Source of the DNA: Patescibacteria group bacterium
GTDB taxonomy: Bacteria; Patescibacteriota; Patescibacteriia; UBA11705; DATKZF01
Direction of reading: 5' to 3'
Assembly (NCBI GenBank): GCA_049319825.1
Contig: JBMORT010000006.1
Span: 80,012-144,011, forward strand
DNA: 64,000 nt
Part shown: positions 11,768 through 46,611 of the stretch, in pieces
Numbering within the stretch: position 1 is the stretch's first letter
Layout of the letters: every line of letters begins with the position of its first letter
Made by a program: the position numbers and the translations under genes
Notes under the pieces: model-generated
The model's input: only the letters and a program-made list of their open reading frames with translations
Told to the model about the DNA's origin: nothing
Databases searched by the model: none

Positions 11768-12367
11768 ATGTTTAAAAATAGGAAAAATAGATTTGCCGAA
11801 AAGGAATATAACCAGCAGCTGATTCATTTAGCGAGAGTAACGCGAGTTATGGCCGGCGGTAAAAGGATGCGTTTCCGCGCGACAGTGGCGATCGGTGACG
11901 GCAATGGTCGGGTGGGATTCGCGGTGGCTAAAGGAGCCGACGTGACATTAGCGATCAATAAGGCGGTCAGAAAAGCGAAGAAAAATTTGATAGTCGTGCC
12001 GATTATCAATAAAACCATACCGCATGAGGTTCGCGTCAAATACAAATCAGGCAAGCTGCTGCTTAAACCGGCGCCGATCGGCACGGGTATTAAGGCGGGC
12101 AGCGTCGTCAGGCAAATTTTGGAACTGGGTGGAGTTCCGAATGTTATTGGTAAGATACTGGGAACCCGTAATAAATTGATAAACGCTCAAGCGGTGATCA
12201 TTGCGTTGTCCAGCTTTAAAACGGACGGTCTTAAGCTTGATAAAACTCAGCCGAAAAAAGCGGCTGACGAAAGATTTGGCAAATCATTCGCGAAACCCGC
12301 AAGAGCTAGGAAAGCGTCGGATCGACGGGGCAAAAAAATTGATGATAAATCAACAGATAAGAAATAA
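11768..12367 (+). CDS. rpsE: 30S ribosomal protein S5 with a C-terminal Lys-rich extension
   Basis: S5 dsRBD and C-terminal domain (RVTRVMAGGKRMRFRATVAIGDGNGRVGFA). Confidence 0.92.
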   Translation: MFKNRKNRFAEKEYNQQLIHLARVTRVMAGGKRMRFRATVAIGDGNGRVGFAVAKGADVTLAINKAVRKAKKNLIVVPIINKTIPHEVRVKYKSGKLLLKPAPIGTGIKAGSVVRQILELGGVPNVIGKILGTRNKLINAQAVIIALSSFKTDGLKLDKTQPKKAADERFGKSFAKPARARKASDRRGKKIDDKSTDKK

Positions 12368-12369
12368 TT

Positions 12370-12849
12370 ATGCCACTACATTTGCATACAATTAAAACAG
12401 CCAATAAAAAGCCGCGGAAACGGGTTGGCCGAGGCAGCGGTTCTGGGCGCGGCACCTATGCCGGCCGAGGACTCAAGGGTCAAAGAGCCAGATCCGGCGG
12501 AAAAAAAGGGCTGAAGATCAAGGGATTCAAATCCAATTTGCTTAGGATTCCCAAACTTCGCGGTTTTAACAGTCCAAAGCCCAAAAAGCAAATAGTAAAA
12601 CTGTCAATACTAAATAAATACTTCAATGACGGCGATTCCGTTAATCCTAGGGAATTAGCGGCTAAGGATTTAATCAAAGACGTGAAAATCGGCGTGAAGG
12701 TTTTATTGGATGCGAAAACATCCAAAAAATTGAATTTTCAGAATTGTTGGTTTTCAAAATCAGCTGAAAATGTTATCATTAAATCCGGAGGAAAAATTCA
12801 AAGGGAAGATTCACCGGCTACGGCCAAAGAGCAGCGCGAAAAAAAATAA
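12370..12849 (+). CDS. rplO: 50S ribosomal protein L15
   Basis: RVGRGSGSGRGTYAGRGLKGQ. It follows rpsE directly, so there is no L30 gene between them. Confidence 0.9.
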   Translation: MPLHLHTIKTANKKPRKRVGRGSGSGRGTYAGRGLKGQRARSGGKKGLKIKGFKSNLLRIPKLRGFNSPKPKKQIVKLSILNKYFNDGDSVNPRELAAKDLIKDVKIGVKVLLDAKTSKKLNFQNCWFSKSAENVIIKSGGKIQREDSPATAKEQREKK

Positions 12850-17697: not shown

Positions 17698-17771
17698 ACG
17701 TCAATCATTGATTGGCGTTTTTAAGTTTGACGGCGGCAAACCAAAAATTCATGCGGCGCATGAATTTTTGG

Positions 17772-17848
17772 TGGTGGGTGTATCTGGACTCGAACCAGAG
17801 ACCTTTACGATGTCAACGTAACGCTCTAACCAGCTGAGCTATACACCC
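17772..17848 (-). tRNA. tRNA-Val (anticodon GAC)
   Basis: Cloverleaf on the reverse complement: GGGTGTA acceptor stem, anticodon loop TTGACAT, T-loop TTCGAGT, encoded CCA. Confidence 0.85.
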
Positions 17849-17947
17849 GCCTTCGCCCTTCGATAAACTCAGGGCTTCAACGGGCAGGCCCGGTAATTTG
17901 GCCTGCCAGCCGAAGCTCCGACGAGCAACGAGAGGAGGAGCGAAGGC

Positions 17948-18024
17948 TGGTGGGTGCGGATGGACTTGAACCATCGACCCCAACGTTATAAGCGTTGTGC
18001 TCTAACCAACTGAGCTACGCACCC
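17948..18024 (-). tRNA. tRNA with anticodon UAU (Ile, reading AUA)
   Basis: Reverse complement folds with acceptor GGGTGCG, anticodon stem CAACG/CGTTG, loop CTTATAA, T-loop TTCAAGT, encoded CCA. Confidence 0.72.
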
Positions 18025-18201
18025 ATCGGTATTGGAAATTGGTTATTGGTTTGGGGCAATGGGGATTGAAAGTTAGGATTCCAATGTTCATCTTTTCAAT
18101 TTTTACGGTGGCTTCATTCCCCTGATTCATGCTCCATGATAAAAAACGGTTCTTGCGATATTTTATCACAATTGAAATATTTTGTAAATAGCAATTATCA
18201 C

Positions 18202-18242: not shown

Positions 18243-20204
18243 TTATTGTGTAAGCAGTAAATCTTGGCTGATATCGATCGCTTTTAAGGTTGCCAATGCC
18301 GGATTAAAATCATCTTTCGAGGTTATCGGATCTCCCAGGTTATAGTTAAAGAAATAAGAATCGGGCATGTCATCGACGAGTTTCGCCCAGTCGTTTCCGT
18401 ACAGCGCTTGCGCCACTTCTTCTGTCTCGATCCATCTGAGAACGCCGTGAGAATCAACGGCATAAACATTGGGGATGGAAATGATTTTTACCATTCTGAC
18501 CCCCGGCCTGTAGGTCACATTGCCGTCAAGTCTGATAGTGGCGAGGAGCGAGTCGCCGATTGTTTTGACATTGGAAAAATCGGGATACCAGGTCATGTAC
18601 GTATTTCGACTCGGAAAAACATGTCTTTTCTGATCTTCTCCGTAATAATAAACGGTATCTAAAGATCCTTTAAAAATGTCTCCGGGATTAAGATTCACAT
18701 CAGTGGCGCACATTTCCGGATAATCGGCAATATATAAAGTTTTGATTTGTTTAAGAGCGGTTTGGGAATCGGACCATAATAAAATGTCTTCTTTTTTTAT
18801 GCCGCCATAAAGCAGGCCCACTTTAATTTGGTGGTGCCATCCGGCGTCGAGTTTGACAACAGAAAAGTTTATGCTGGAGCAACCATATTTTTCGACTTTA
18901 ATCCAAACATCATCGTGATCCATGTCATTACCCTTGTCTTCAAATTGATAAGTCATGGATCCGTCGGCGGAAGATTCCGTCAGCGCGTAAGGCGTGTTTA
19001 TATGTCGCTCTGTCCCATCCGGGTTTACAATGTATAAGTCATATGACAACAAATCGCAGTCAATAACGCAAGGTATTACCGGAATGTTGGTTTCGCATAC
19101 TGATGAATAATTGGTTAAGGTGACCGTTTTCGATTGTTCAACCGCCAATTGTGAGTTTTCCCAGAGAGATATGGTTTCCTTAGCCATGCCCTGGTACAGT
19201 AATTTTACTTTTATTTGATGGGTCCAGCGGCCATTGACTTTAAATACGGTGAATTTGATGTTTTGGCAATCGTTTTGTTCGGCGATTATCCAGATGTCGT
19301 CAAAATCCATGTCCGCGCCTTTGTCTTCGAATTTATAAAGATAGGTGTTTTCATCAAGCGTCTCTTTGCGCACAAAGCTGGAATTTGAATGTCTTTCAGT
19401 GCCGTCCGGATTGATAATGTATAGATCGTACGAAATTTTTTCACAGTTTAGTGTGCATTCGGCCGGAGGGATGTTTTTATCGACGTAATTGATGGTGTCG
19501 CTGATGGCGCCGGAAGTGGCGCCGCTGGAATTTTTGAATTTGGCATACACGATTTTTGTTCCGAAATTTTCGGTCAACGTCCAACTTTTGCCAGATTGAT
19601 AAGCTTCCCACTGGGCGCCTGTAAAGCTCTGATCATTGGAGATCATCATTTGGTTGACATTACTGGCAATTAAGCTGAGACTGACCGTTCGGCTGTTTGT
19701 CTCGGCGGCATTGTTATTGATAACGATGGCGGTGTTGTATGGATATTGCGGAGTAAATACACCGCCGCCGCCACCACCACCGCCACCGCATCCCGGATTT
19801 ATTGAAGTTACTTCCAGCCGTAAAACAACTGTCGCCCCGGTGCCGTTCATGGTTACGGAATTGGTAATGCAAGCCGGGCTGGTAGTGTAAGCGTTTGATC
19901 CGGATTGTTTGGTTATTTTAAGATATTGAGACGAACTGCTGGTACTGAAAGCGATGCTGGATCCGGCATCGAGAGTAATATCAATATAATTGGACTGAAT
20001 GTCAATGTTTGTGGCCAGGCTGCCATTTTGGGCGATAACCGTCGCGAGGGTGGGCGAAGCGTCAATGGTATTGACCTCTAAATTGGTGTTTGAACTGAAT
20101 GATATGTCATTGATGCCAAAAACAGCAAACGGGTAGCCCAAAAGCAATGTAAATAAAAGAATCACCAACGTGTTTATCAAATTAAATTTATTTGATTTAT
20201 TCAT
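18243..20204 (-). CDS. Secreted repeat protein (653 aa) with a signal peptide, a Gly9 tract and a duplicated ~115-aa Cys-containing domain
   Basis: N-terminal hydrophobic signal. Two homologous blocks (C.L.C..ISYDLYI.NPDGTERH...FEDKG.DMD.DD.WI...). 9 nt separate it from the upstream gene. Confidence 0.8.
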   Translation of the reverse strand: MNKSNKFNLINTLVILLFTLLLGYPFAVFGINDISFSSNTNLEVNTIDASPTLATVIAQNGSLATNIDIQSNYIDITLDAGSSIAFSTSSSSQYLKITKQSGSNAYTTSPACITNSVTMNGTGATVVLRLEVTSINPGCGGGGGGGGGVFTPQYPYNTAIVINNNAAETNSRTVSLSLIASNVNQMMISNDQSFTGAQWEAYQSGKSWTLTENFGTKIVYAKFKNSSGATSGAISDTINYVDKNIPPAECTLNCEKISYDLYIINPDGTERHSNSSFVRKETLDENTYLYKFEDKGADMDFDDIWIIAEQNDCQNIKFTVFKVNGRWTHQIKVKLLYQGMAKETISLWENSQLAVEQSKTVTLTNYSSVCETNIPVIPCVIDCDLLSYDLYIVNPDGTERHINTPYALTESSADGSMTYQFEDKGNDMDHDDVWIKVEKYGCSSINFSVVKLDAGWHHQIKVGLLYGGIKKEDILLWSDSQTALKQIKTLYIADYPEMCATDVNLNPGDIFKGSLDTVYYYGEDQKRHVFPSRNTYMTWYPDFSNVKTIGDSLLATIRLDGNVTYRPGVRMVKIISIPNVYAVDSHGVLRWIETEEVAQALYGNDWAKLVDDMPDSYFFNYNLGDPITSKDDFNPALATLKAIDISQDLLLTQ

Positions 20205-20206
20205 AA

Positions 20207-23200
20207 TTATTGTTCAGACAAAGTCACGTATCCGCCATACACGCTATCGGCATTGCCGGTATTGACATAGATTGTCAAATAATTGGTGGTGCTGGAAGCG
20301 GTGTCGGTTATATTGATTTCAGTGCCGACAACTCCTGCCCCTAAATTCGTGGCGGTGGTGTTATTGGTGATGTCGTTGGCGTAAACGGTAACGGTGTTTG
20401 TTGTGTCCGAACCGTATACCATGGCCGCGGTCGCCTGAAATCCGGTGGGGATGGCAATGGTTGCCGCCATTTGCGTGGTACCGCTGCTGGCGGTGACCGA
20501 CGTGCCATCAGTGGCGATGGTGGCGTTATCGTCATTGTCATCGGAAATGAAATCCGCTGGTAATAATTTGAGCCGAGTGGTCGAGCCGAACCAGCCGTTT
20601 CGTACCCAGCTGAGATTACCATTGCCGTCAGTTTGCAAAAATTGTCCGGAATTGCCGTCATTCGCCGGCATGGTATATGTGGTATTTTGAGTCATGGCCG
20701 CCGGCGGCTGGAAAATGATTTCATAATCGGTCGGACCTTGCTCGGAATATATTCTTAATTGCCCGTCAGTGCCGTTGCGCCCTGTCCTGATGGCGCCGGT
20801 GGTATCTATTGCGTAGGCAGGAGCGTTGGTGCCGACGCCCAATCGCTTATTGGTATTATCCCAGAAAAAGTTGGTATTATCTTGTGTTATCAAGCCTGAC
20901 GTTCCCGTGAATACGACTGAGCCGGCAGTCAAATCAGAAATAGTTAATGTTTCTCCCGCATTCAGCAAGATATCGTCTCCGGCGGTTGCCGGTGATAAAT
21001 TGGTGCCGGTTCTGGACCAGTAGTTGGTGCCGGCCGAGCTAACACAATCAGTCCAGGCGCCGGATTGATAGCATCTGAATTTATTGGTATTGGTATTGTA
21101 ATAAATCGCACCGTTAGTGCCGGCCGGATCACCGGCATCGCTTTTTTTATCCAAAATCAAAAGATCGGGAGTGGTTGAACCGGCGCCGCCGGCGCCGATT
21201 TGAACATAAGCTGTAGTGCCGGTGCCGGCCGGTTGCAGCGTGATATTTCCGGTAGTGGTGGAAAAGCTGGAGGCGGCGCCGCCTTGCATGGCCAGCGCTG
21301 AAGCCGATGTTAAATTAAGGTTGCCCGATGAAGTTGACCAGGTTGAGGTGGCGCCGGCGGTGAGTGTCAGCGCGCCGGAAGAAGTAAATTGCGAGGCGGA
21401 TGTCGGGGTGAGATTGACCGCCCCTGATCCAGTGGCGTTGAAGTTTCCCGATGTCAGATTAAAAACTATCGGTATGCCCGCGGCGGTGGTGATTGACGCG
21501 CCGTTATCGTACGCGGTTTGCAAGGTGGCGGAAGCCCCGGTGGTATCGCAGTCTTTCCAGGCGCCGCTTTCATAGCAGCGGAATTTATTGGTGGTTGAGT
21601 TATAATAGGTGAGCCCGTTTGAACCGGCCGGATCAGCGCCAATTGAGCCAAGCAATAATTCGCCGGTTATCGTGGTCCTGTCAGTGCTGCCATTGCCCAA
21701 ATTTGAATTGCCTTGAACACCAAGATCGCCGGTTAGCGTTAATCCGGTAAATTGGGGGCTGTCCGCTGTGCCCAATCCGAGAGATGTTCTGGCGGTGTTG
21801 CCGGATTCTGCGACCCAAGTGGTGCCATTGCCGACTATAAAGTCGCTATCAGCGGATGATAATCCAGCAATGGCGGCCAAGGCGCCACTGAGAGAAAAAT
21901 TAATTGTGTCTGTGCCCGCGTTTCCGGTGACGTACATCCCTGTTCCCGCGGTTAAAGCTAAAGTGTCTGTCGACGCGTCCGCTACCGGGTTTGTTCCCAG
22001 CGGAGTGGAAATCGTTTCAAAAAGATTTTGAGCAGCGGCAGAAACAGTGGCCCACTGAGGGTCTGCCCCGGCGCCCTGAGTTTGCAGGACTTGGCCGCTG
22101 GTTCCCGGAGACAGAGTCACCCAATCAGATCCGTCAAAGTAAAGGACTTCGCCCTGAGCGGCGGTAATTGAGGCGATATCATCGAGGTAAGAATCCCAAG
22201 CCTGAACATTGGAGCCGATAGCTAATCCCAAGTTTGATCGAGCGGTGGTGGCGTCGGTGGCGCCAGTGCCGCCTTTGGCGATGCTCAGAGTGCCGCCCAA
22301 ATTGTCCAATGTTAAATTAGCTTCAGTGATATCAATATCGATTTCATTATTGATGGCGTCGTTCGAAACGTTGACTTTGCTTGATCCGGCATTGATATTC
22401 TTAAATTCCAAGTCAGCGCCGGTTTTTTGTAAAAATGGTCCGACCCCGCCAACACCTTGATTCGAGGCGGTATTAGTTTCTCCGCCGCCGCCTGCCGCCC
22501 ACTGCGGATTGGCGCCGGCGCCTTGCGTTTGCAAAAATTGTCCGGAGGTGCCGGCGGCGAGCCTGACCCAGTTGGTGCCGTTAAAGTAAAGGACATCGCC
22601 CTGAGCTTCGCCGGATATCGTTAAATCGGTTACGGTGGTTGAACTATAAGATCCGGAAACGTCCCCGCTGAAAGAAGTGGCAGTGGTCAAGTCATCAGTG
22701 CTGACCTTGTCCCAATTGGCAGTGCTTGTCTGCTGCCAGTTGGCGCCGTCGCCGATAATAATGTTGTTGTTTGTCGGAGTTAAACCGGCGATGTCATCGA
22801 GCTGGACATCCCAAGCCTGAACGCTAGTACCAATGTTCGCATCGAGAAGCAAAGTTCCGGTTGCAGCAGGAATAGTGACAGTAACATCGGCGCCGGGATC
22901 GGCAGCGGTTAACTGAACTTCATTGCCGTCAGCGGAAGTGCCTTCAAACCAGAGAGAATTGCCGTCGTTTCCCGCGGTAGCGGTAAATGCCGCTCCTGAA
23001 GCGACATCGCCAACATCTGTAACATCACCTGAGCCTGCGGCAGCCGCCCACTGCGGATTGGCGCCGGCGCCTTGCGTTTGCAAAAATTGTCCGGAGGTGC
23101 CGGCGGCGAGCCTGACCCAGTTGGTGCCGTTAAAGTAAAGGACATCGCCCTGAGCTTCGCCGGATATCGTTAAATCGGTTACGGTGGTTGAACTATAAGA

Positions 23201-23482
23201 TCCGGAAACGTCCCCGCTGAAAACGGTGCTGGTCGTTAAATCGTCAGCATTGTTTTTATCCCAGGCGGCGGCGTTTAGCCAGGTGGCATTGCCGAGGGCA
23301 TCGGATTGAAGAATAAAACCGGCTCCGGCCCCGTTTGAAAACAATAAATTACCCTGAACGCTGAGATTTCCGCCGGTGGTGATGTTATTGCCAATAGTGG
23401 TGGCTGCCAAAGTGGATGGGCAAATCACTAAATTTAATAAAAGGATTATTCCAAAGGCCTTTAATTTTTTTTTGATGTTCAT
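20207..23482 (-). CDS. Large secreted Gly/Thr/Ser-rich repetitive surface protein (1091 aa)
   Basis: Signal peptide. Three copies of the motif LYF(N/D)G(T/S)(N/D)WV.L..GTSGQ.LQTQGAGA.PQWA. Forms an operon with the 653-aa gene. Confidence 0.85.
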   Translation of the reverse strand: MNIKKKLKAFGIILLLNLVICPSTLAATTIGNNITTGGNLSVQGNLLFSNGAGAGFILQSDALGNATWLNAAAWDKNNADDLTTSTVFSGDVSGSYSSTTVTDLTISGEAQGDVLYFNGTNWVRLAAGTSGQFLQTQGAGANPQWAAAAGSGDVTDVGDVASGAAFTATAGNDGNSLWFEGTSADGNEVQLTAADPGADVTVTIPAATGTLLLDANIGTSVQAWDVQLDDIAGLTPTNNNIIIGDGANWQQTSTANWDKVSTDDLTTATSFSGDVSGSYSSTTVTDLTISGEAQGDVLYFNGTNWVRLAAGTSGQFLQTQGAGANPQWAAGGGGETNTASNQGVGGVGPFLQKTGADLEFKNINAGSSKVNVSNDAINNEIDIDITEANLTLDNLGGTLSIAKGGTGATDATTARSNLGLAIGSNVQAWDSYLDDIASITAAQGEVLYFDGSDWVTLSPGTSGQVLQTQGAGADPQWATVSAAAQNLFETISTPLGTNPVADASTDTLALTAGTGMYVTGNAGTDTINFSLSGALAAIAGLSSADSDFIVGNGTTWVAESGNTARTSLGLGTADSPQFTGLTLTGDLGVQGNSNLGNGSTDRTTITGELLLGSIGADPAGSNGLTYYNSTTNKFRCYESGAWKDCDTTGASATLQTAYDNGASITTAAGIPIVFNLTSGNFNATGSGAVNLTPTSASQFTSSGALTLTAGATSTWSTSSGNLNLTSASALAMQGGAASSFSTTTGNITLQPAGTGTTAYVQIGAGGAGSTTPDLLILDKKSDAGDPAGTNGAIYYNTNTNKFRCYQSGAWTDCVSSAGTNYWSRTGTNLSPATAGDDILLNAGETLTISDLTAGSVVFTGTSGLITQDNTNFFWDNTNKRLGVGTNAPAYAIDTTGAIRTGRNGTDGQLRIYSEQGPTDYEIIFQPPAAMTQNTTYTMPANDGNSGQFLQTDGNGNLSWVRNGWFGSTTRLKLLPADFISDDNDDNATIATDGTSVTASSGTTQMAATIAIPTGFQATAAMVYGSDTTNTVTVYANDITNNTTATNLGAGVVGTEINITDTASSTTNYLTIYVNTGNADSVYGGYVTLSEQ
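22494..22673. repeat. ~180-bp direct repeat, copy 1, inside the 1091-aa gene
   Basis: Identical to 23044-23222 at the nucleotide level (both spurious minus ORFs translate to MSFTLTAPTGSGSPPAPPDNFCKRKAPAPIRSGR). Confidence 0.85.
23044..23222. repeat. ~180-bp direct repeat, copy 2
   Basis: See copy 1. Confidence 0.85.
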
Positions 23483-23695
23483 AAATAAAAATTTGATTTA
23501 TTCAAGAAATATAAATAAATTTATTTCATTTGGTTGAATAAATTATACCATAAATAGCAGTTTAAGAAAATGTGGACAATTATACTTTCCGTGTGGTAGC
23601 AATATAAAAGCGATATGGCGCTGCGATTTGACAAATTTGTATCCGAAGTTTAATATATTGTGTTGTTCGTTCTTTTTAAAAAGATAGGAGGTGCA

Positions 23696-24889
23696 ATGAG
23701 AGATTTCATCCATCTGGTTACGCCGCCGGATTTGCTGCTGCGCTATGCCATGGATAAAGAAAAGATAGCTCGAGAATACCCCAAAGGGTTTGAACATGCT
23801 CAAAGCATGGATCGTTTATTTCGAGCCATTGCCTCGCAGGAAGTATCCGATGCCAGGATGGCGATATCAGGCTGGCTTGAACAAACGGTCGGCGATGCGT
23901 TCCCTGCCGATATTTTATACGACATATTCACTGAAGCGATTCAGGAGGCCAAGGGGTTTCGCGAGGAATTGCTCAGAGAATTCGTGCCGGAGAAGGTGCG
24001 GTTTGTTTTCACGTCAGAAGGAATTTGCCGACCGACGAACGATCCCATCAATTTGCTTCGAATCATGCATGATCCCCCGGGAAATTCAATATATAGAAGG
24101 ATCAGATCATTTGAGGCGAATTTGTTTTTCAGCTTGGGGATGAGGTATTTGATTATGTTGATGAAAAATAAAAGTCGGGAAGCTTTTCTTTCTGATCTGA
24201 CAGAAATATTGGAAAGTGATTTTTTCTCCCGCGATTGCCACGGCGAATTCAGAAGAATTCTGGAAATCGTATATGATAAAAACAACTATCACCGATTCGT
24301 GAAATTTTTGGAAGCGGGCGAAAGCGCCAAACACATTTTTCGCTGGCCGTTATGGTTTAGAAAAATCAGTGTTTACGGCCGTGATATGTATGTTTTATAT
24401 GATAGCCGCGATAAGCGTATGCAGGACGTTTTTAGAAAAACATTGCTTGATTCAACCGCCGCCAATCCGATTGCCGCCGATGTAAACGCAATTACTTTCG
24501 TGTTCCTATCGGAGGAAGACCTAAAACAAGCTTTTGAATTGTTGACATCCAAAATATTCACTAATTTTGTCGGTGTAGTCAAGTATCGCATCGATGGAGA
24601 TGGCGATACCAATGGATACTCGGCGCGGACAAACGCTCCCAACAGACATTTTAAGGTCTGGCACCGGGGGAGATTGGTCGAGGTTCAAATGTTTTTATTC
24701 GGAAATTATTTTAATCGAAAATTTTCCATTGACGAGTCCAACCATCATCTTTATCGATTGCGCCAGGTTTGCGATGTCCTGCCGATGCTGGCGCCCCAAG
24801 ACGTTTATAATGTCGATTGGAAAGATGAGGAGCTTCTGCGCCAAATGCATCAATTGCAGATCTATCGTTCTTTGGCCAATTTTAATTAA
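23696..24889 (+). CDS. Hypothetical protein (397 aa); possible divergent RelA/SpoT-like nucleotidyltransferase fold
   Basis: AGGAGG RBS before the ATG at 23696. The C-terminal region KYRIDGDGDTNGYSARTN...LVEVQMF...HHLYR loosely matches RSH synthetase motifs (NGYxSxH, ExQIRT, HxxYK). Confidence 0.6.
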   Translation: MRDFIHLVTPPDLLLRYAMDKEKIAREYPKGFEHAQSMDRLFRAIASQEVSDARMAISGWLEQTVGDAFPADILYDIFTEAIQEAKGFREELLREFVPEKVRFVFTSEGICRPTNDPINLLRIMHDPPGNSIYRRIRSFEANLFFSLGMRYLIMLMKNKSREAFLSDLTEILESDFFSRDCHGEFRRILEIVYDKNNYHRFVKFLEAGESAKHIFRWPLWFRKISVYGRDMYVLYDSRDKRMQDVFRKTLLDSTAANPIAADVNAITFVFLSEEDLKQAFELLTSKIFTNFVGVVKYRIDGDGDTNGYSARTNAPNRHFKVWHRGRLVEVQMFLFGNYFNRKFSIDESNHHLYRLRQVCDVLPMLAPQDVYNVDWKDEELLRQMHQLQIYRSLANFN

Positions 24890-25010: not shown

Positions 25011-25086
25011 TGGTCGGGGTAGTGAGACTTGAACTCACGACCTCATGCACCCCATGCATGCGCGCTACCAACTGCGCTATACCCCG
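25011..25086 (-). tRNA. tRNA-Pro (anticodon GGG)
   Basis: Reverse complement CGGGGTA...anticodon loop ATGGGGT...T-loop TTCAAGT...TACCCCG-A-CCA. Confidence 0.82.
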
Positions 25087-25087
25087 A

Positions 25088-25185
25088 CATCATGGATCAT
25101 GGATCATGGATCATGGATCATGGATCATGGATCATGGATCATGGATCATGGATCATGGATCATGGATCATGAATCATGGATCAAT
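25088..25185. repeat. Heptanucleotide tandem array (GATCATG/CATGGAT), ~13.5 copies
   Basis: 12 perfect units plus 1 variant from 25091 to 25181, abutting the tRNA-Pro 5' end. Each unit contains GATC and CATG. Confidence 0.95.
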
Positions 25186-32434: not shown

Positions 32435-33118
32435 ATGAAGCTTAGAATTTTTGTATATTTTATTGTATTATTTTTACTGCCGGGCTCGGCGCTGGCCGTG
32501 GGCATGAGCGGCACGAATTACGAAATACCTTTCGACTCAATCAATATCGGCGGCAGTGATTTTTCCGGCTCTGCCAATTATTTGATGTTTGATACCATGG
32601 GCGAAGCCGGGACCGATTTTTCCAGCTCCGCAAATTATCAAATGAACGTGGCCGGTTATCGCCAAAAGGATTTGGTGACGACTTTAAGTTTATCGCTGAA
32701 CACCAGCAATTTGAATTTGGGTCAAATTAAGCCGTCTGAAAACGCCAGCGGATCGATCACCGCCACGGTGACCACCAATGCGGCCAACGGCTATGACCTT
32801 TATATTAAAAAAAATCAATTACTGACTTCGGCCGGGCACAGCATATCGGATTTCAGCGGCACGATCGCCGCGCCGATCGCTTGGAGCGGCGTTGGTTTCG
32901 GCTTCACGCTGATCAGCGGCACCGGTCTGGACATCAAATGGGGCAGCGGCGCCAATTTCGCCGCCGTTCCCGGAGCTTCAACTTTGACTCACACCAAACC
33001 GGCCCTGTCTTTGATCCCCGATGACACGCAATTCGGATTTAAGGTCGAACTTGATTCAAATCAATCGTCGGGCATATATTCAAACACCATTACTTTTACC
33101 GCCTTGCCGAAATTATGA
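32435..33118 (+). CDS. Secreted protein (227 aa) with internal repeats; possibly WxL-like
   Basis: Signal peptide MKLRIFVYFIVLFLLPGSALA. The C-terminus ...TITFTALPKL resembles a WxL tail. Its stop overlaps the next ATG (ATGA). Confidence 0.75.
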   Translation: MKLRIFVYFIVLFLLPGSALAVGMSGTNYEIPFDSINIGGSDFSGSANYLMFDTMGEAGTDFSSSANYQMNVAGYRQKDLVTTLSLSLNTSNLNLGQIKPSENASGSITATVTTNAANGYDLYIKKNQLLTSAGHSISDFSGTIAAPIAWSGVGFGFTLISGTGLDIKWGSGANFAAVPGASTLTHTKPALSLIPDDTQFGFKVELDSNQSSGIYSNTITFTALPKL

Positions 33119-33978
33119 TGCGCGTTTCCAAAAAGATATTATTAATCAGCTTGATGCTATCGATATTAACGCCGCTATCGAGTATCGCCCAAACGCAAAT
33201 TTCATTGGCAGTGACGCCGCTCAAGCACGTTTTCAGCATCGAGCCCGGGCAAAGTCAGCAGGGAGAAATTTTTTTAAAGAATAATTCGACAGTCGCGTTA
33301 AAGGTCGTTCCCCGAGTGGTGGCTTTTCGGACGATCGACGATCAAGGCACTTTGGAGATCATCGAAGGCGATTTCACCGACTATGTTTCCTTGCCGGTGA
33401 GCGTGTTTGAGCTGATCCCCGGGGAAAGAAGACAAATAAATTTTAACGTTTTCGCTCCCGCCAATGAGAGTGGCGGACGTTATTTCGCCATATTATTCGC
33501 CGCCGATACTGTCGATCAGACAGCGGGGGCGTCTTTTTCGGGCGAGGTCGGCAGTTTGGTTTTTATGGAGATCCTTGGAGATATTTGGCATCAGACCGAA
33601 ATAAAGGATGTTCGATCAAAAAAAATTTACTGGAGTCAGCCGGAATTGTCGATCACTTTGGAAAATAAAGGCAATACGCACAGCGCGCCGTTTGGAGAAA
33701 TAAAATTTTTTAATCTATTCGGTCAGAAAAAAGAAACCGTCACCGCATTTTGGCCCCAGATATTGCCGGGCGGCGAACGGCAGCTGCATATTTCTCCGCG
33801 TGGAAATTTTTTCGGGTACTATAAAGCCCAAATCGGGCTAGTTGATAGCGAATGGAATTATTTAACCGAGGAAATCGATTTTTGGGTCTTGCCGAAAATT
33901 TATATTTTTGAAATTTTAATATTGCTGGCGGCGGCAATTTTTACAGCCGCGTTCATCAAGAAAAAATCCCATGCTTAA
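33115..33978 (+). CDS. DUF916/DUF3324-like cell-surface protein (signal peptide plus C-terminal TM and basic tail)
   Basis: FSIEPGQSQQGEIFLKNNSTVALKV matches the DUF916 N-terminal pattern. C-terminal hydrophobic helix followed by KKKSHA. Confidence 0.7.
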   Translation: MMRVSKKILLISLMLSILTPLSSIAQTQISLAVTPLKHVFSIEPGQSQQGEIFLKNNSTVALKVVPRVVAFRTIDDQGTLEIIEGDFTDYVSLPVSVFELIPGERRQINFNVFAPANESGGRYFAILFAADTVDQTAGASFSGEVGSLVFMEILGDIWHQTEIKDVRSKKIYWSQPELSITLENKGNTHSAPFGEIKFFNLFGQKKETVTAFWPQILPGGERQLHISPRGNFFGYYKAQIGLVDSEWNYLTEEIDFWVLPKIYIFEILILLAAAIFTAAFIKKKSHA

Positions 33979-36697
33979 AGGAGGAAAATTAATCTTTGGC
34001 TTGATTCTGTGCGCCGCGTCATTGCTTGGCGGTGCGGTTTTTGGTTTGGCGGCTTCTTCGGATTCGACCGTTCAGGTCGAGGTGCTGCCGACGGGCGGCA
34101 ATATCACGCCGCCGCCGGATCAAGACCGAACCGCGCCGATTATTTCCAACATTCAAGTTATAAATATCACTGGCGATTCGGCCACCATCACTTGGGACAC
34201 GAGCGAGCCGGCGTCGTCGCTTATTTATTTCGGTGAAACCGCGGCCTACGGCCAATCCGTTGTTGACGGCAATTTATTAACCAGCCATTCTTTAAATATT
34301 TTCGGTTTGAACCCGGCAACGCTTTATCATTTTAACATCGTGGCCACCGACGCGGCGGCCAATTCAGCACAGTCCGGAGATTATACGTTCACGACCGCCT
34401 CAGCCGCCGGGTTATACGCGCCCGGTCCGCCGATTTTGGATGCCTGGTCCGCTTCGGTGATAAATTTGACAATCGATACCAACGGTAATGCCGGCGACGT
34501 GCTTTACGCGATCAACGAAACGACCACCGGCCGCTATCTGTCGCCGAGCGGCGCTCTGGTCGTGTCTCCGACTTGGCAAACATTCACCAGCTGGGGCAGC
34601 GCGTTTGGCAAAAACGTCATTGGTTTATCGGAAAACACCAGATATACTTTTCGCGTTAGAGCCAAAAACGATGCCGGCGAATCAGCTTGGTCGGAATCAT
34701 CATCGGCCTACACTTTAATCAATAAACCGACCAGTTTGATGTTGATCGATGCCGGTTTATATAATTTAATAATCCGCGCGCAGGGCACATTGCCCAATAT
34801 TGGGGCCGGGTCAACGGCTTTGCGGTTTGAAAATGTTTCGACCGGGCAGGTTTCCGGCTGGATCCCCAATTTAAGCTGGAATAACCTCGGTCTTAATCCC
34901 GGTAGTCCTTATTCTTTCCGGGTGAAAGCCAGAAACGGCGATGGGCGAGAGACCGATTATACCGAATTGTTCGTGTTCTCGACTCATTCCCAGCTGCCGC
35001 AGTGTAGCGACGGCCGCGACAATGATAACGATAATTTTATCGATTATCCGGCCGACTCGGGTTGTGACAGCCCCAATGACAACAATGAAGAAAATTTGGT
35101 TGAAATTCCCCGCCAATGCTCGGATGGTATTGATAATGACAGTGATGGATTTACGGATTATCCTACAGATCAGGGTTGTGTTAGCCCGGAGGATGATAAT
35201 GAGCAAGATGAAGAAATAATCGAACCCTTGCCCCAGTGCGCTGATGGCATTGATAATGATAACGACGGCTTTGTCGATTATCCGGCCGACCTGGGCTGCG
35301 TCAGCGCGACAGACGACAGCGAGCTTGAGCCGCCGGTGGTTTTACCGGCCTGCGCCGACGGCATTGATAATGACGGCGACGGTTTAATCGATTATCCGGC
35401 TGACCCGGGTTGCGCTTCCCAGCTTGACAATGACGAAGTTGACGTGATTTATGAAGAAGCGATCACGCCGTCCGTTTCCGAGCGCGTCTCGGAAAATATT
35501 GGGCAAGCGCTCGAGGTCATTAAGCGCAACGCGGCCGTGGCTTTCATGCTCGATAATTTTTTTAACGATCCGGCAGTGGAAGCCGTGACGGAAAAAGTCG
35601 GGTTTCCGGCGATCGCCGCCGTAACCGCCCTAAACATCATCTCTATTTTTTCATTGGCGGGAATATTGCCATACCTGCTGTTCGTTTTCAGTGAACCGAT
35701 TTTGATTTTATTCAAGAAAAAACGAAAGAAATTCGGGGTGGTTTATGATTCAATTACCAAAAAACCTGTTGATTTAGCGATTTTAAGACTTTATGAACAA
35801 AACACCAATAAACTGATTCAAACTCGAGTATCGGATAAAGACGGGCGATTCGCTTTCATCGTTGATCCGGGAACATATTATATCAAAGCGTTTAAAAAGG
35901 AATATCTTTTCCCGACAGTGGTTTTGCAAAATCAAAAAGAGGATGTTTTTTACATTGATTTGTATCACGGAGAAAATATCAGCGTCACAGAAAAAGTGAC
36001 GATTACTCCAAATATTCCGCTTGATCCGGAAAAAGCGACTGAGCCGGCGAAAAAAGTTTTGGTGGTTCACGCGCTACGTAAATTTCAGAAAGTCCTGGCG
36101 CTGCTTGGGCCGCTGGCCACGCTGGTTATTTTAATGATAAAGCCGAGCTGGATTTGGGTGTTGCTTTTGGCGTTGCACATTTTACTGTATATCATATTTC
36201 GGCGGCTGGCCATGCCCGGCAAACCAAAAAGTTGGGGCATTGTCGCGGATAATATCGATAAAAAGCCGTTGAACCGCGCCGTTGTGCGATTGTACGACAG
36301 TAAGTATAATAAATTGTTGGAAACCCAAGTGACTGATAATCAAGGCAGATACGGTTTTATCGCAGGAAAAAACATTTATTACATCACCGCGGAGCGCCGC
36401 GGCTATCAGCCGGAAAAAACCAATAACATCGAACAAAATAAGATTGAGGGAGAGGCGGTTACCAGAAATTTATTTATGCAGCCGGCGGGAAAAACGGTCA
36501 CGACGCAAACCGCGACCGCGCCGGCCGCGCCGGTGTCTCCGTCGCCGGCAATTCAGTCGCGCCCCGCGGTTAGAAATTTACCGCATCAGTGGCGCGGTGA
36601 GGAATCAGCACAGGAAATTAAAGAAGAAACAGCCGGTGAAGATTTTGAATTCAAGGAAAGGGCCAAGGATATAAATATTCCTTGGAGCCAGCAATGA
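33971..36697 (+). CDS. Large membrane-anchored surface protein (908 aa): signal peptide, FN3-like domains, 4x Cys-bracketed Asp-rich repeats, 2x carboxypeptidase-regulatory-like domains separated by TM segments
   Basis: Repeats C.DG.DND.D.F.DYP.D.GC occur four times. VYDSITKKPVDLAILRLYEQ and VADNIDKKPLNRAVVRLYDS are paired beta-sandwich units. Confidence 0.85.
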   Translation: MLKGGKLIFGLILCAASLLGGAVFGLAASSDSTVQVEVLPTGGNITPPPDQDRTAPIISNIQVINITGDSATITWDTSEPASSLIYFGETAAYGQSVVDGNLLTSHSLNIFGLNPATLYHFNIVATDAAANSAQSGDYTFTTASAAGLYAPGPPILDAWSASVINLTIDTNGNAGDVLYAINETTTGRYLSPSGALVVSPTWQTFTSWGSAFGKNVIGLSENTRYTFRVRAKNDAGESAWSESSSAYTLINKPTSLMLIDAGLYNLIIRAQGTLPNIGAGSTALRFENVSTGQVSGWIPNLSWNNLGLNPGSPYSFRVKARNGDGRETDYTELFVFSTHSQLPQCSDGRDNDNDNFIDYPADSGCDSPNDNNEENLVEIPRQCSDGIDNDSDGFTDYPTDQGCVSPEDDNEQDEEIIEPLPQCADGIDNDNDGFVDYPADLGCVSATDDSELEPPVVLPACADGIDNDGDGLIDYPADPGCASQLDNDEVDVIYEEAITPSVSERVSENIGQALEVIKRNAAVAFMLDNFFNDPAVEAVTEKVGFPAIAAVTALNIISIFSLAGILPYLLFVFSEPILILFKKKRKKFGVVYDSITKKPVDLAILRLYEQNTNKLIQTRVSDKDGRFAFIVDPGTYYIKAFKKEYLFPTVVLQNQKEDVFYIDLYHGENISVTEKVTITPNIPLDPEKATEPAKKVLVVHALRKFQKVLALLGPLATLVILMIKPSWIWVLLLALHILLYIIFRRLAMPGKPKSWGIVADNIDKKPLNRAVVRLYDSKYNKLLETQVTDNQGRYGFIAGKNIYYITAERRGYQPEKTNNIEQNKIEGEAVTRNLFMQPAGKTVTTQTATAPAAPVSPSPAIQSRPAVRNLPHQWRGEESAQEIKEETAGEDFEFKERAKDINIPWSQQ

Positions 36698-46078: not shown

Positions 46079-46166
46079 GCCGGGGTGGTGAAATTTGGTA
46101 TACACGCTACCTTGAGGTGGTAGTGGGCGCAAGCCCGTGCAGGTTCAAATCCTGTCCCCGGCACCA
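46079..46166 (+). tRNA. tRNA-Leu (anticodon GAG) with a long variable arm
   Basis: GCCGGGG acceptor, anticodon loop TTGAGGT, long variable arm, T-loop TTCAAAT, encoded CCA. Confidence 0.85.
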
Positions 46167-46611
46167 GCCTTCGCGCCAGCGAAGGCTGTCGTCCGAAGCT
46201 TTATGCGAAGGACGACATCTTGATTAGCAGTAAACGTAATAATTGGCTGGCGCTTCGGCTGGCAGGCCATTCTTCTCTCGCTTGAGCGAAGAATGTCCTC
46301 CGGAGCTGTCCTTCATTAAAATTTCGGACAGCGAAGGAGGGCAGGTAGATACGCTCATACCGTTTTTATTGACGCGAGCTTCGAACGGCACAGCCGGTTT
46401 CCAGCGTCCATTCCCATATTTTTATTCCCAGCGTGCGGCGCGGCCATATAGATTAGAAAGTAATCATCGCGAAAAATGGGGAGTCAATAACAATCAAGTC
46501 TTCAAAATGCCGATGTCCGTTGGGACATTTTTTTTGTTTACAAGCGATTGTTTATAAAATTTTGCTCGAAAGTTGAGTTTTTGATATAATTAAAATCAAA
46601 TAGATTCATAT

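Follow-up and report, generated by a model that had tools for sequence, protein, structure and literature searches.

A conserved tRNA-Ile(UAU) gene as the probable AUA decoder of Paceibacteria/ABY1-type Patescibacteria, possibly in place of TilS and tRNA-Ile2(CAU)

The window, by which the whole 64-kb stretch of DNA analysed is meant, carries fusA, tuf, ribosomal-protein operons, secY, adk, map, recO and valS, together with tyrS, argS, CPR-type pilus genes, pyk and ppsA. Four tRNA genes were called in it by ARAGORN, two of which, for tRNA-Ile(UAU) and tRNA-Val(GAC), lie side by side on the minus strand and appear, judging from consensus matches, to form a two-gene unit. The features of this unit and the two remaining tRNA genes are as follows.

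17740-17771, minus strand: terminator-like hairpin (A-run, 15-bp stem, U-run), directly 3' of tRNA-Val (fold)
17772-17848, minus strand: tRNA-Val(GAC) gene, downstream partner of tRNA-Ile(UAU) (ARAGORN; Rfam, 71.2 bits)
17849-17947, minus strand: spacer of 99 nt between tRNA-Ile(UAU) and tRNA-Val(GAC), a single long hairpin (fold)
17948-18024, minus strand: tRNA-Ile(UAU) gene, 77 nt including the encoded CCA at 17950-17948 (ARAGORN, Rfam, fold, covariation)
17986-17992, minus strand: anticodon loop CUUAUAA, with the anticodon UAU at 17990-17988 (read from the sequence)
18160-18188, minus strand: promoter-like site TTTACA-17-TG-TAAAAT, some 135 nt ahead of the 5' end of tRNA-Ile (consensus match only)
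25011-25086, minus strand: tRNA-Pro(GGG) gene (ARAGORN)
46079-46166, plus strand: tRNA-Leu(GAG) gene (ARAGORN)

A first-pass annotation of this DNA had placed a clean cloverleaf with a UAU anticodon and the loop CTTATAA at 17948-18024, leaving the strand unstated, and had proposed a check with a tRNA predictor. The coordinates proved exact and the gene lies on the minus strand, where ARAGORN calls a tRNA-Ile(tat) with the anticodon TAT at gene positions 35-37. The Rfam model RF00005 matches 17951-18024 with 74.5 bits (gathering score 29; E 1.8e-14) over model positions 1-71 of 71. The minus-strand sequence of the gene, GGGUGCGUAGCUCAGUUGGUUAGAGCACAACGCUUAUAACGUUGGGGUCGAUGGUUCAAGUCCAUCCGCACCCACCA, has a minimum free energy fold of -28.1 kcal/mol (z = -2.8), which is a clean cloverleaf with stems of 7, 4, 5 and 5 bp and a 7-nt anticodon loop. 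The gene has no intron, its discriminator base is A73 and its CCA end is encoded.

In an alignment of 27 distinct homologues, 99.3% of the cloverleaf cells are paired and compensatory changes occur in 14 of the 21 stem pairs; the observed covariation was reached by none of 500 shuffles, and no slid register came close to it. The loop CUUAUAA is found in 146 of 147 family copies, a count in which the 107 metagenome copies had been preselected with a fixed CTYATAA, while the 40 genome copies were unselected for the loop. The tRNA-Ile(UAU) is thus under selection as a tRNA and is no chance match.

With regard to its identity, the tRNA carries the Ile-type bases A73, U33, A35, U36, A37 and A38, and its D-arm and T-arm are common to tRNA-Ile(GAU). 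Its body resembles those of tRNA-Ile(GAU) and tRNA-Ile2(CAU), but E. coli elongator tRNA-Met is just as near to it (77% identity), so that similarity alone cannot fix what the tRNA is charged with. Most family members have the acceptor-stem pairs C4-G69/C5-G68, like tRNA-Ile2(CAU), whereas the copy in the window has U4-A69/G5-C68 instead of the usual C4/C5. In the window, as in 146 other loci, the gene has TAT as its anticodon and not the CAT, with C34, of the tRNA-Ile2(CAU) that serves as TilS substrate.

Joint transcription of tRNA-Ile and tRNA-Val(GAC) would run from a promoter near 18160-18188 to the hairpin that follows tRNA-Val. In a consensus scan, the promoter-like site gave 10 of 12 consensus matches and an extended -10 TG; the terminator-like hairpin, which folds at -19.0 kcal/mol (z = -6.0), was missed by such a scan because its stem is AT-rich. 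The hairpin that fills the spacer has a minimum free energy of -56.8 kcal/mol (z = -6.1), equalled by none of 200 shuffles. It is not kept in relatives, where the spacers measure 4-250 nt, and a role as a tRNA processing site is a guess. On the minus strand this hairpin starts with GCCUUCGC and ends with GCGAAGGC, and the same arrangement recurs at 46167-46345 on the plus strand, directly after the CCA of tRNA-Leu(GAG), where it is followed by further stable hairpins (z = -5.5). The tRNA-Ile/Val spacer and the tRNA-Leu(GAG) trailer share 18 identical nucleotides (46252-46269 in the trailer). This recurrent hairpin, not seen in the spacers of relatives, may be an element for tRNA-trailer processing or a terminator.

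The 3' CCA is encoded in all four tRNA genes of the window, as against only about 4 of 40 related tRNA-Ile(UAU) genes. A perfect heptamer array, (ATCATGG) x 13.6 with 97% matches, is found at 25089-25183, immediately before the 5' end of tRNA-Pro(GGG), and occupies the place in which the promoter of that gene would be expected. The tRNA pair is separated from the DHH-valS genes by tRNA-Pro(GGG) and by the stretch 18243-24889, with three genes of 653, 1091 and 409 aa that show no family match except a faint one to DUF3344; in 40 relatives, the distance from the tRNA to the DHH gene is 50-1700 nt. The G+C content of this stretch is 0.49-0.52 against about 0.43 around it and, being some 6.6 kb long and absent in relatives, it looks like an insertion adjoining the tRNA genes. 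Further on, at 32435-36697, a Pam pilus gene of the CPR type (PamT-like, below cut-off) adjoins a 908-aa protein with acidic double-disulfide repeats, which is followed by a 1725-aa ORF without a family match.

The host is one of the ultra-small Patescibacteria/CPR bacteria. No ValS from 185,579 GTDB species is more than 58% identical to that of the window, and the best matches are all from Patescibacteria (CPR) MAGs, such as Paceibacterota, Falkowbacteria, Moraniibacteriota and similar groups. The sole other copy of a window protein found in the assembly index is on a 4.1-kb Logan contig from SRR32167788.

The tRNA-Ile(TAT) gene was found in 40 of 80 related valS loci, each from a different GTDB species, almost always with tRNA-Val(GAC) as its neighbour at a gap of 4-250 nt. 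Where the DHH-valS gene order is that of the window, 40 of 41 loci keep tRNA-Ile(UAU) just downstream of the DHH gene, and the DHH proteins of those 41 loci are only 33-45% identical to the one encoded in the window. A metagenome scan with the family core, in which either T or C was permitted at position 34, returned at least 120 loci; among the matches listed, 110 had TAT and 10 had CAT. In total, 147 UAU-bearing loci were collected including the window, and tRNA-Val(GAC) was called in 91 of them. Many of the metagenome loci share a second fixed context, in which rpsA and ftsH are followed by tRNA-Ile(UAU) and tRNA-Val(GAC).

To avoid bias from selection on the tRNA, this second context was sampled through ftsH itself, with nine loci from a CPR FtsH profile search that were picked mainly for long contigs and regardless of their tRNAs. 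The named matches of this search were Paceibacterota, Pacebacteria, Nealsonbacteria and Staskawiczbacteria. The order ftsH, tRNA-Ile(UAU), tRNA-Val(GAC), directly adjacent, was present in all eight Paceibacteria ftsH loci with DNA, which come in addition to the 147 counted above, and the ninth locus has the same gene order and a gap of fitting size. Altogether, the tRNA pair is syntenic with housekeeping genes, either DHH-valS, or else rpsA-ftsH on one side with rluA-like-rplS on the other, in well over a hundred lineages. The tRNA-Ile(UAU) is therefore clade-wide in Patescibacteria of the Paceibacteria/ABY1 ('Parcubacteria') type and no peculiarity of the genome in the window. An encoded tRNA-Ile with a UAU anticodon had been described as rare in the first-pass annotation; this holds for published surveys of cultured bacteria, which report 9-19 species, but it fails in the present lineage, with its 147 loci and all eight ftsH loci.

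In eight of the nine ftsH loci (L207, L208, L209 and L211-L216, with the place concerned at about 12000-12800), the tRNA pair is followed by a gene for a small (182-259 aa) RluA-family pseudouridine synthase that has no S4 domain; next come rplS and a tRNA array. The corresponding gene of L211 has no Pfam match. Eukaryotic tRNA-Ile(UAU) has pseudouridine at positions 34 and 36, and the RluA-family gene beside tRNA-Ile(UAU) is in this respect a lead from its position only.

The codon AUA is in use in this lineage. It occurs in the window at 13.7 per 1000 codons, which amounts to 18% of the isoleucine codons, and it is avoided to near absence in fusA and tuf, as expected of a codon read by a minor tRNA. 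Its meaning was assessed on conserved alignment columns of 41 ValS genes from UAU-bearing genomes, with the following outcome.

AUA on conserved Ile columns: 241 of 303
AUA on conserved Met columns: 7 of 303
AUU on conserved Ile columns: 704 of 775
AUG on conserved Met columns: 442 of 513

The column profile of AUA in these genes matches those of AUU and AUC and differs from that of AUG. Within the window, the positions of AUA codons align to isoleucine in 41% of cases, to leucine in 30%, to valine in 13% and to methionine in 0.9%. AUA is isoleucine in this lineage. Because the UAU gene is genuine and AUA is both used and read as isoleucine, the tRNA can be regarded as a lysidine-independent reader of AUA, and the alternative AUA-decoding strategy proposed on first inspection is thereby borne out.

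Whether the canonical system is also present was approached by searching for its components. The window contains no tilS, no ileS and no CAU tRNA. Besides the window, the search took in 80 genome loci, 120 metagenome loci and the 9 ftsH loci, and it relied on tblastn, for which the queries were TilS and IleS of E. coli, and on an HMM built from three TilS N-domains (E. coli, Geobacillus and Aquifex). It revealed no TilS-like ORF in these ~2.4 Mb of related DNA, which represent two neighbourhoods only (valS and ftsH/tRNA) and are a non-random sample, with just 2-3 tilS copies expected if the gene were placed at random. Every IleS match in the same DNA was a ValS, and no ileS was found in the window or at any locus. 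A protein search with E. coli TilS is uninformative on CPR bacteria, since the best 120 matches were all from Enterobacteria.

A more pointed comparison is offered by the Saccharibacterium Southlakia epibionticum, in which an essential tilS lies directly upstream of ftsH and for which three CAU tRNAs annotated as 'Met' and a single tRNA-Ile are given (Cell 2023, Table S1); this organism is taken to represent the canonical TilS system. Unlike in Southlakia, there is no tilS at this position in the UAU lineages, where rpsA or variable ORFs stand upstream of ftsH, and no PF01171 gene was detected within 10 kb on either side of ftsH in the nine loci. The variable ORFs between rpsA and ftsH were considered as degenerate TilS and rejected, as they have no PP-loop motif, Pfam match or HMM match. 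Moreover, all nine CAU tRNAs found in UAU-bearing loci are initiator-like or elongator-Met-like and none of them is Ile2-like. The 10 metagenome loci with CAU and the same tRNA body look like the tRNA-Ile2(CAU) of other bacteria, but they have almost no neighbour genes in common with the UAU loci and are thus uninformative on the UAU lineage. As for cultured Paceibacteria, the part of the Minisyncoccus gene table covered, about 45% of it, includes a type-2 IleRS (PF19302) and no TilS.

The most serious alternative is that of a redundant decoder, in which TilS and tRNA-Ile2(CAU) are encoded elsewhere in the genome and the UAU tRNA is a second reader of AUA. There are precedents for such a combination in Lactobacillus casei, L. 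plantarum, Cyanothece PCC 7424 and Ferrimonas balearica, which have both TilS and tRNA-Ile(UAU), and Southlakia demonstrates that one class of CPR bacteria, the Saccharibacteria, does have an essential tilS by ftsH along with three CAU tRNAs and one annotated tRNA-Ile. Furthermore, what was searched for TilS is the 64-kb window together with pieces of related genomes. However, the UAU gene is sporadic by species in the dual-system bacteria, whereas in the present lineage it keeps its position over deep divergence, and its retention in 40 of 41 syntenic loci, with the eight ftsH loci besides, fits an indispensable gene. The lack of any TilS-like ORF in the ~2.4 Mb or upstream of ftsH, and of any Ile2-like tRNA among the nine CAU tRNAs, likewise speaks against redundancy, which we consider unlikely, although by no means negligible. 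The first-pass annotation had considered tilS to be probably absent. On the indirect evidence, absence of tilS and tRNA-Ile2(CAU) from the UAU-bearing genomes is somewhat the better-favoured view, and the tRNA-Ile(UAU) is most likely their dedicated, and probably sole, AUA decoder.

Phage tRNA arrays often provide tRNAs for rare codons, and the tRNA could also have been acquired horizontally, from a phage or as part of an island. A tRNA-Ile(UAU) of the same core sequence is indeed present in a 15-tRNA array on a jumbo-phage contig, and the insertion-like stretch of higher G+C at 18243-24889, which relatives do not have, adjoins the tRNA pair. Nevertheless, the pair lies beside this stretch and not inside it, only 2 matches were obtained among 2.9 million viral contigs, both of them in jumbo-phage tRNA arrays, and the gene holds a fixed chromosomal place by housekeeping genes in well over a hundred lineages, which makes a mobile origin very improbable. 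The array on the jumbo-phage contig (IMGVR_UViG_3300028833_000064, 185 kb, L205) also includes two CAU tRNAs and a tRNA-Phe call with the anticodon AAA.

In mitochondria, AUA stands for methionine. Recognition by MetRS depends on C34. A changed code or another identity, in which the UAU tRNA is charged with, for instance, methionine, as its 77% identity to elongator tRNA-Met might suggest, or in which AUA is reassigned, is the least credible possibility of all, given that C34 is missing from this tRNA, that the window AUA positions fall on methionine in 0.9% of cases and on isoleucine in 41%, and that the codon-column statistics (AUA on 241 Ile and 7 Met columns of 303, AUG on 442 Met columns of 513) rule reassignment out.

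It is nearly certain that the tRNA-Ile(UAU) is a working tRNA-Ile that decodes AUA. The fuller account, of a functional, vertically inherited and clade-wide tRNA-Ile(UAU) that reads AUA and most likely replaces TilS and tRNA-Ile2(CAU), is on balance probable. AUA would be read as isoleucine by U34-A pairing, and such decoding would be independent of a CAU tRNA lysidinylated by TilS. Charging by IleRS, the t6A37 modification, the state of U34, the avoidance of AUG misreading and the loss of tilS are presumed parts of this scheme, by which tRNA-Ile(UAU) would have taken over from the TilS/tRNA-Ile2(CAU) system in the Paceibacteria/ABY1 lineages. TsaD and TsaE are needed for t6A37, and relatives encode both tsaD and tsaE.

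Bacterial tRNA-Ile(UAU) as a reader of AUA has been known for some years. The best-characterised case is that of Mycoplasma mobile, in which tilS was lost, U34 is unmodified, IleRS is adapted through Arg865 and the ribosome discriminates against AUG, all of this established experimentally (Taniguchi et al. 2013, PMC3575796). In the M. mobile IleRS, an arginine replaces the tryptophan that stacks on base 34 (PMC3575796). The lineage described here resembles M. mobile in having a bacterial, genomically encoded UAU tRNA dedicated to AUA and independent of lysidine in a small-genome organism. Unlike M. mobile, a single species in a TilS-using group with an experimentally supported mechanism, it is a very large radiation known from sequence. 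The same study listed nine tilS-less species and 371 unexplained TAT tDNAs in metagenomes (PMC3575796), and it may well be, as a guess, that the latter include the present family. Of two later surveys, one lists 19 species with TAT tRNA genes and the other 17 genomes in which UAU replaces CAU. TilS is still described as essential and present in nearly all bacteria. In a search of the literature, no paper was found that ties lysidine or tilS to Patescibacteria/CPR.

A closer parallel is found in Bifidobacterium and Neorickettsia, which have a tRNA-Ile(UAU), an IleRS of the eukaryotic type (type 2) and no tilS, and in which, as here, conservation of the UAU tRNA extends over the clade. An IleRS able to accept U34 would be one with Arg or Lys at the place of E. 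coli W905, or one of type 2. The C-terminus of the IleRS seen in the covered part of the Minisyncoccus gene table is likewise of type 2 (PF19302), as in those two genera; no IleRS from a UAU-bearing lineage was among the genes recovered. The encoding of UAU for AUA is also shared with eukaryotic cytoplasmic tRNA-Ile(UAU) and with the archaeal tRNA-Ile3(UAU) of Nanoarchaeum and Korarchaeum. In eukaryotes the anticodon of this tRNA is psi-A-psi, and in both eukaryotes and archaea a type-2 IleRS is its partner. The gene in the window differs in having no intron.

In relation to the canonical system of TilS and tRNA-Ile2(CAU), the task is the same, namely to read AUA without reading AUG, but here the anticodon is TAT already in the DNA and TilS would consequently have no cytidine substrate. 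It is plausible that a C34-to-U change in a tRNA-Ile2(CAU) gave rise to the UAU gene, a derivation proposed on account of the C4-G69/C5-G68 stem, the likeness of the tRNA body and the CAU variants in other bacteria.

The chances are evenly balanced that a super-clade of Patescibacteria uniting Paceibacteria and ABY1-type lineages, with thousands of species, has neither TilS nor tRNA-Ile2(CAU) and charges its UAU tRNA with a type-2 IleRS, while the Saccharibacteria keep TilS. If this is true, no other bacterial radiation that lacks the 'nearly universal, essential' tilS would come near it in size, and it would offer a within-phylum contrast on how misreading of AUG is avoided, possibly via modification of U34 and U36 by the RluA-family pseudouridine synthase whose gene follows the tRNA pair. 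A clade-wide replacement would mean that the exceptions to TilS, so far a handful of species, come to include a major part of bacterial diversity and that tilS is unreliable as a universal marker for these genomes. It would also make the comparison of Saccharibacteria (TilS) with Paceibacteria (UAU) a tractable one for the evolution of AUA/AUG discrimination, with cultured members, Southlakia and Minisyncoccus, on both sides. What is new is thus the clade-wide scale in a very large radiation; taken alone, the window carries an ordinary housekeeping tRNA of its lineage.

Two further observations were made in the related loci. The ValS of some Paceibacteria is unusually short, at about 680-705 aa where that of the window has 879 aa (L212, 244-2289; L208, 557-2674; L214; L215); these proteins have two stretches well above the ValS cut-off, and about 170 residues and the C-terminal extension are apparently missing. 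Finally, a tRNA-Leu(AAG), with an A34 anticodon, was found in two CPR loci (L145, 5607-5689; L185, 7439-7522), at a place where other loci have tRNA-Leu(GAG).
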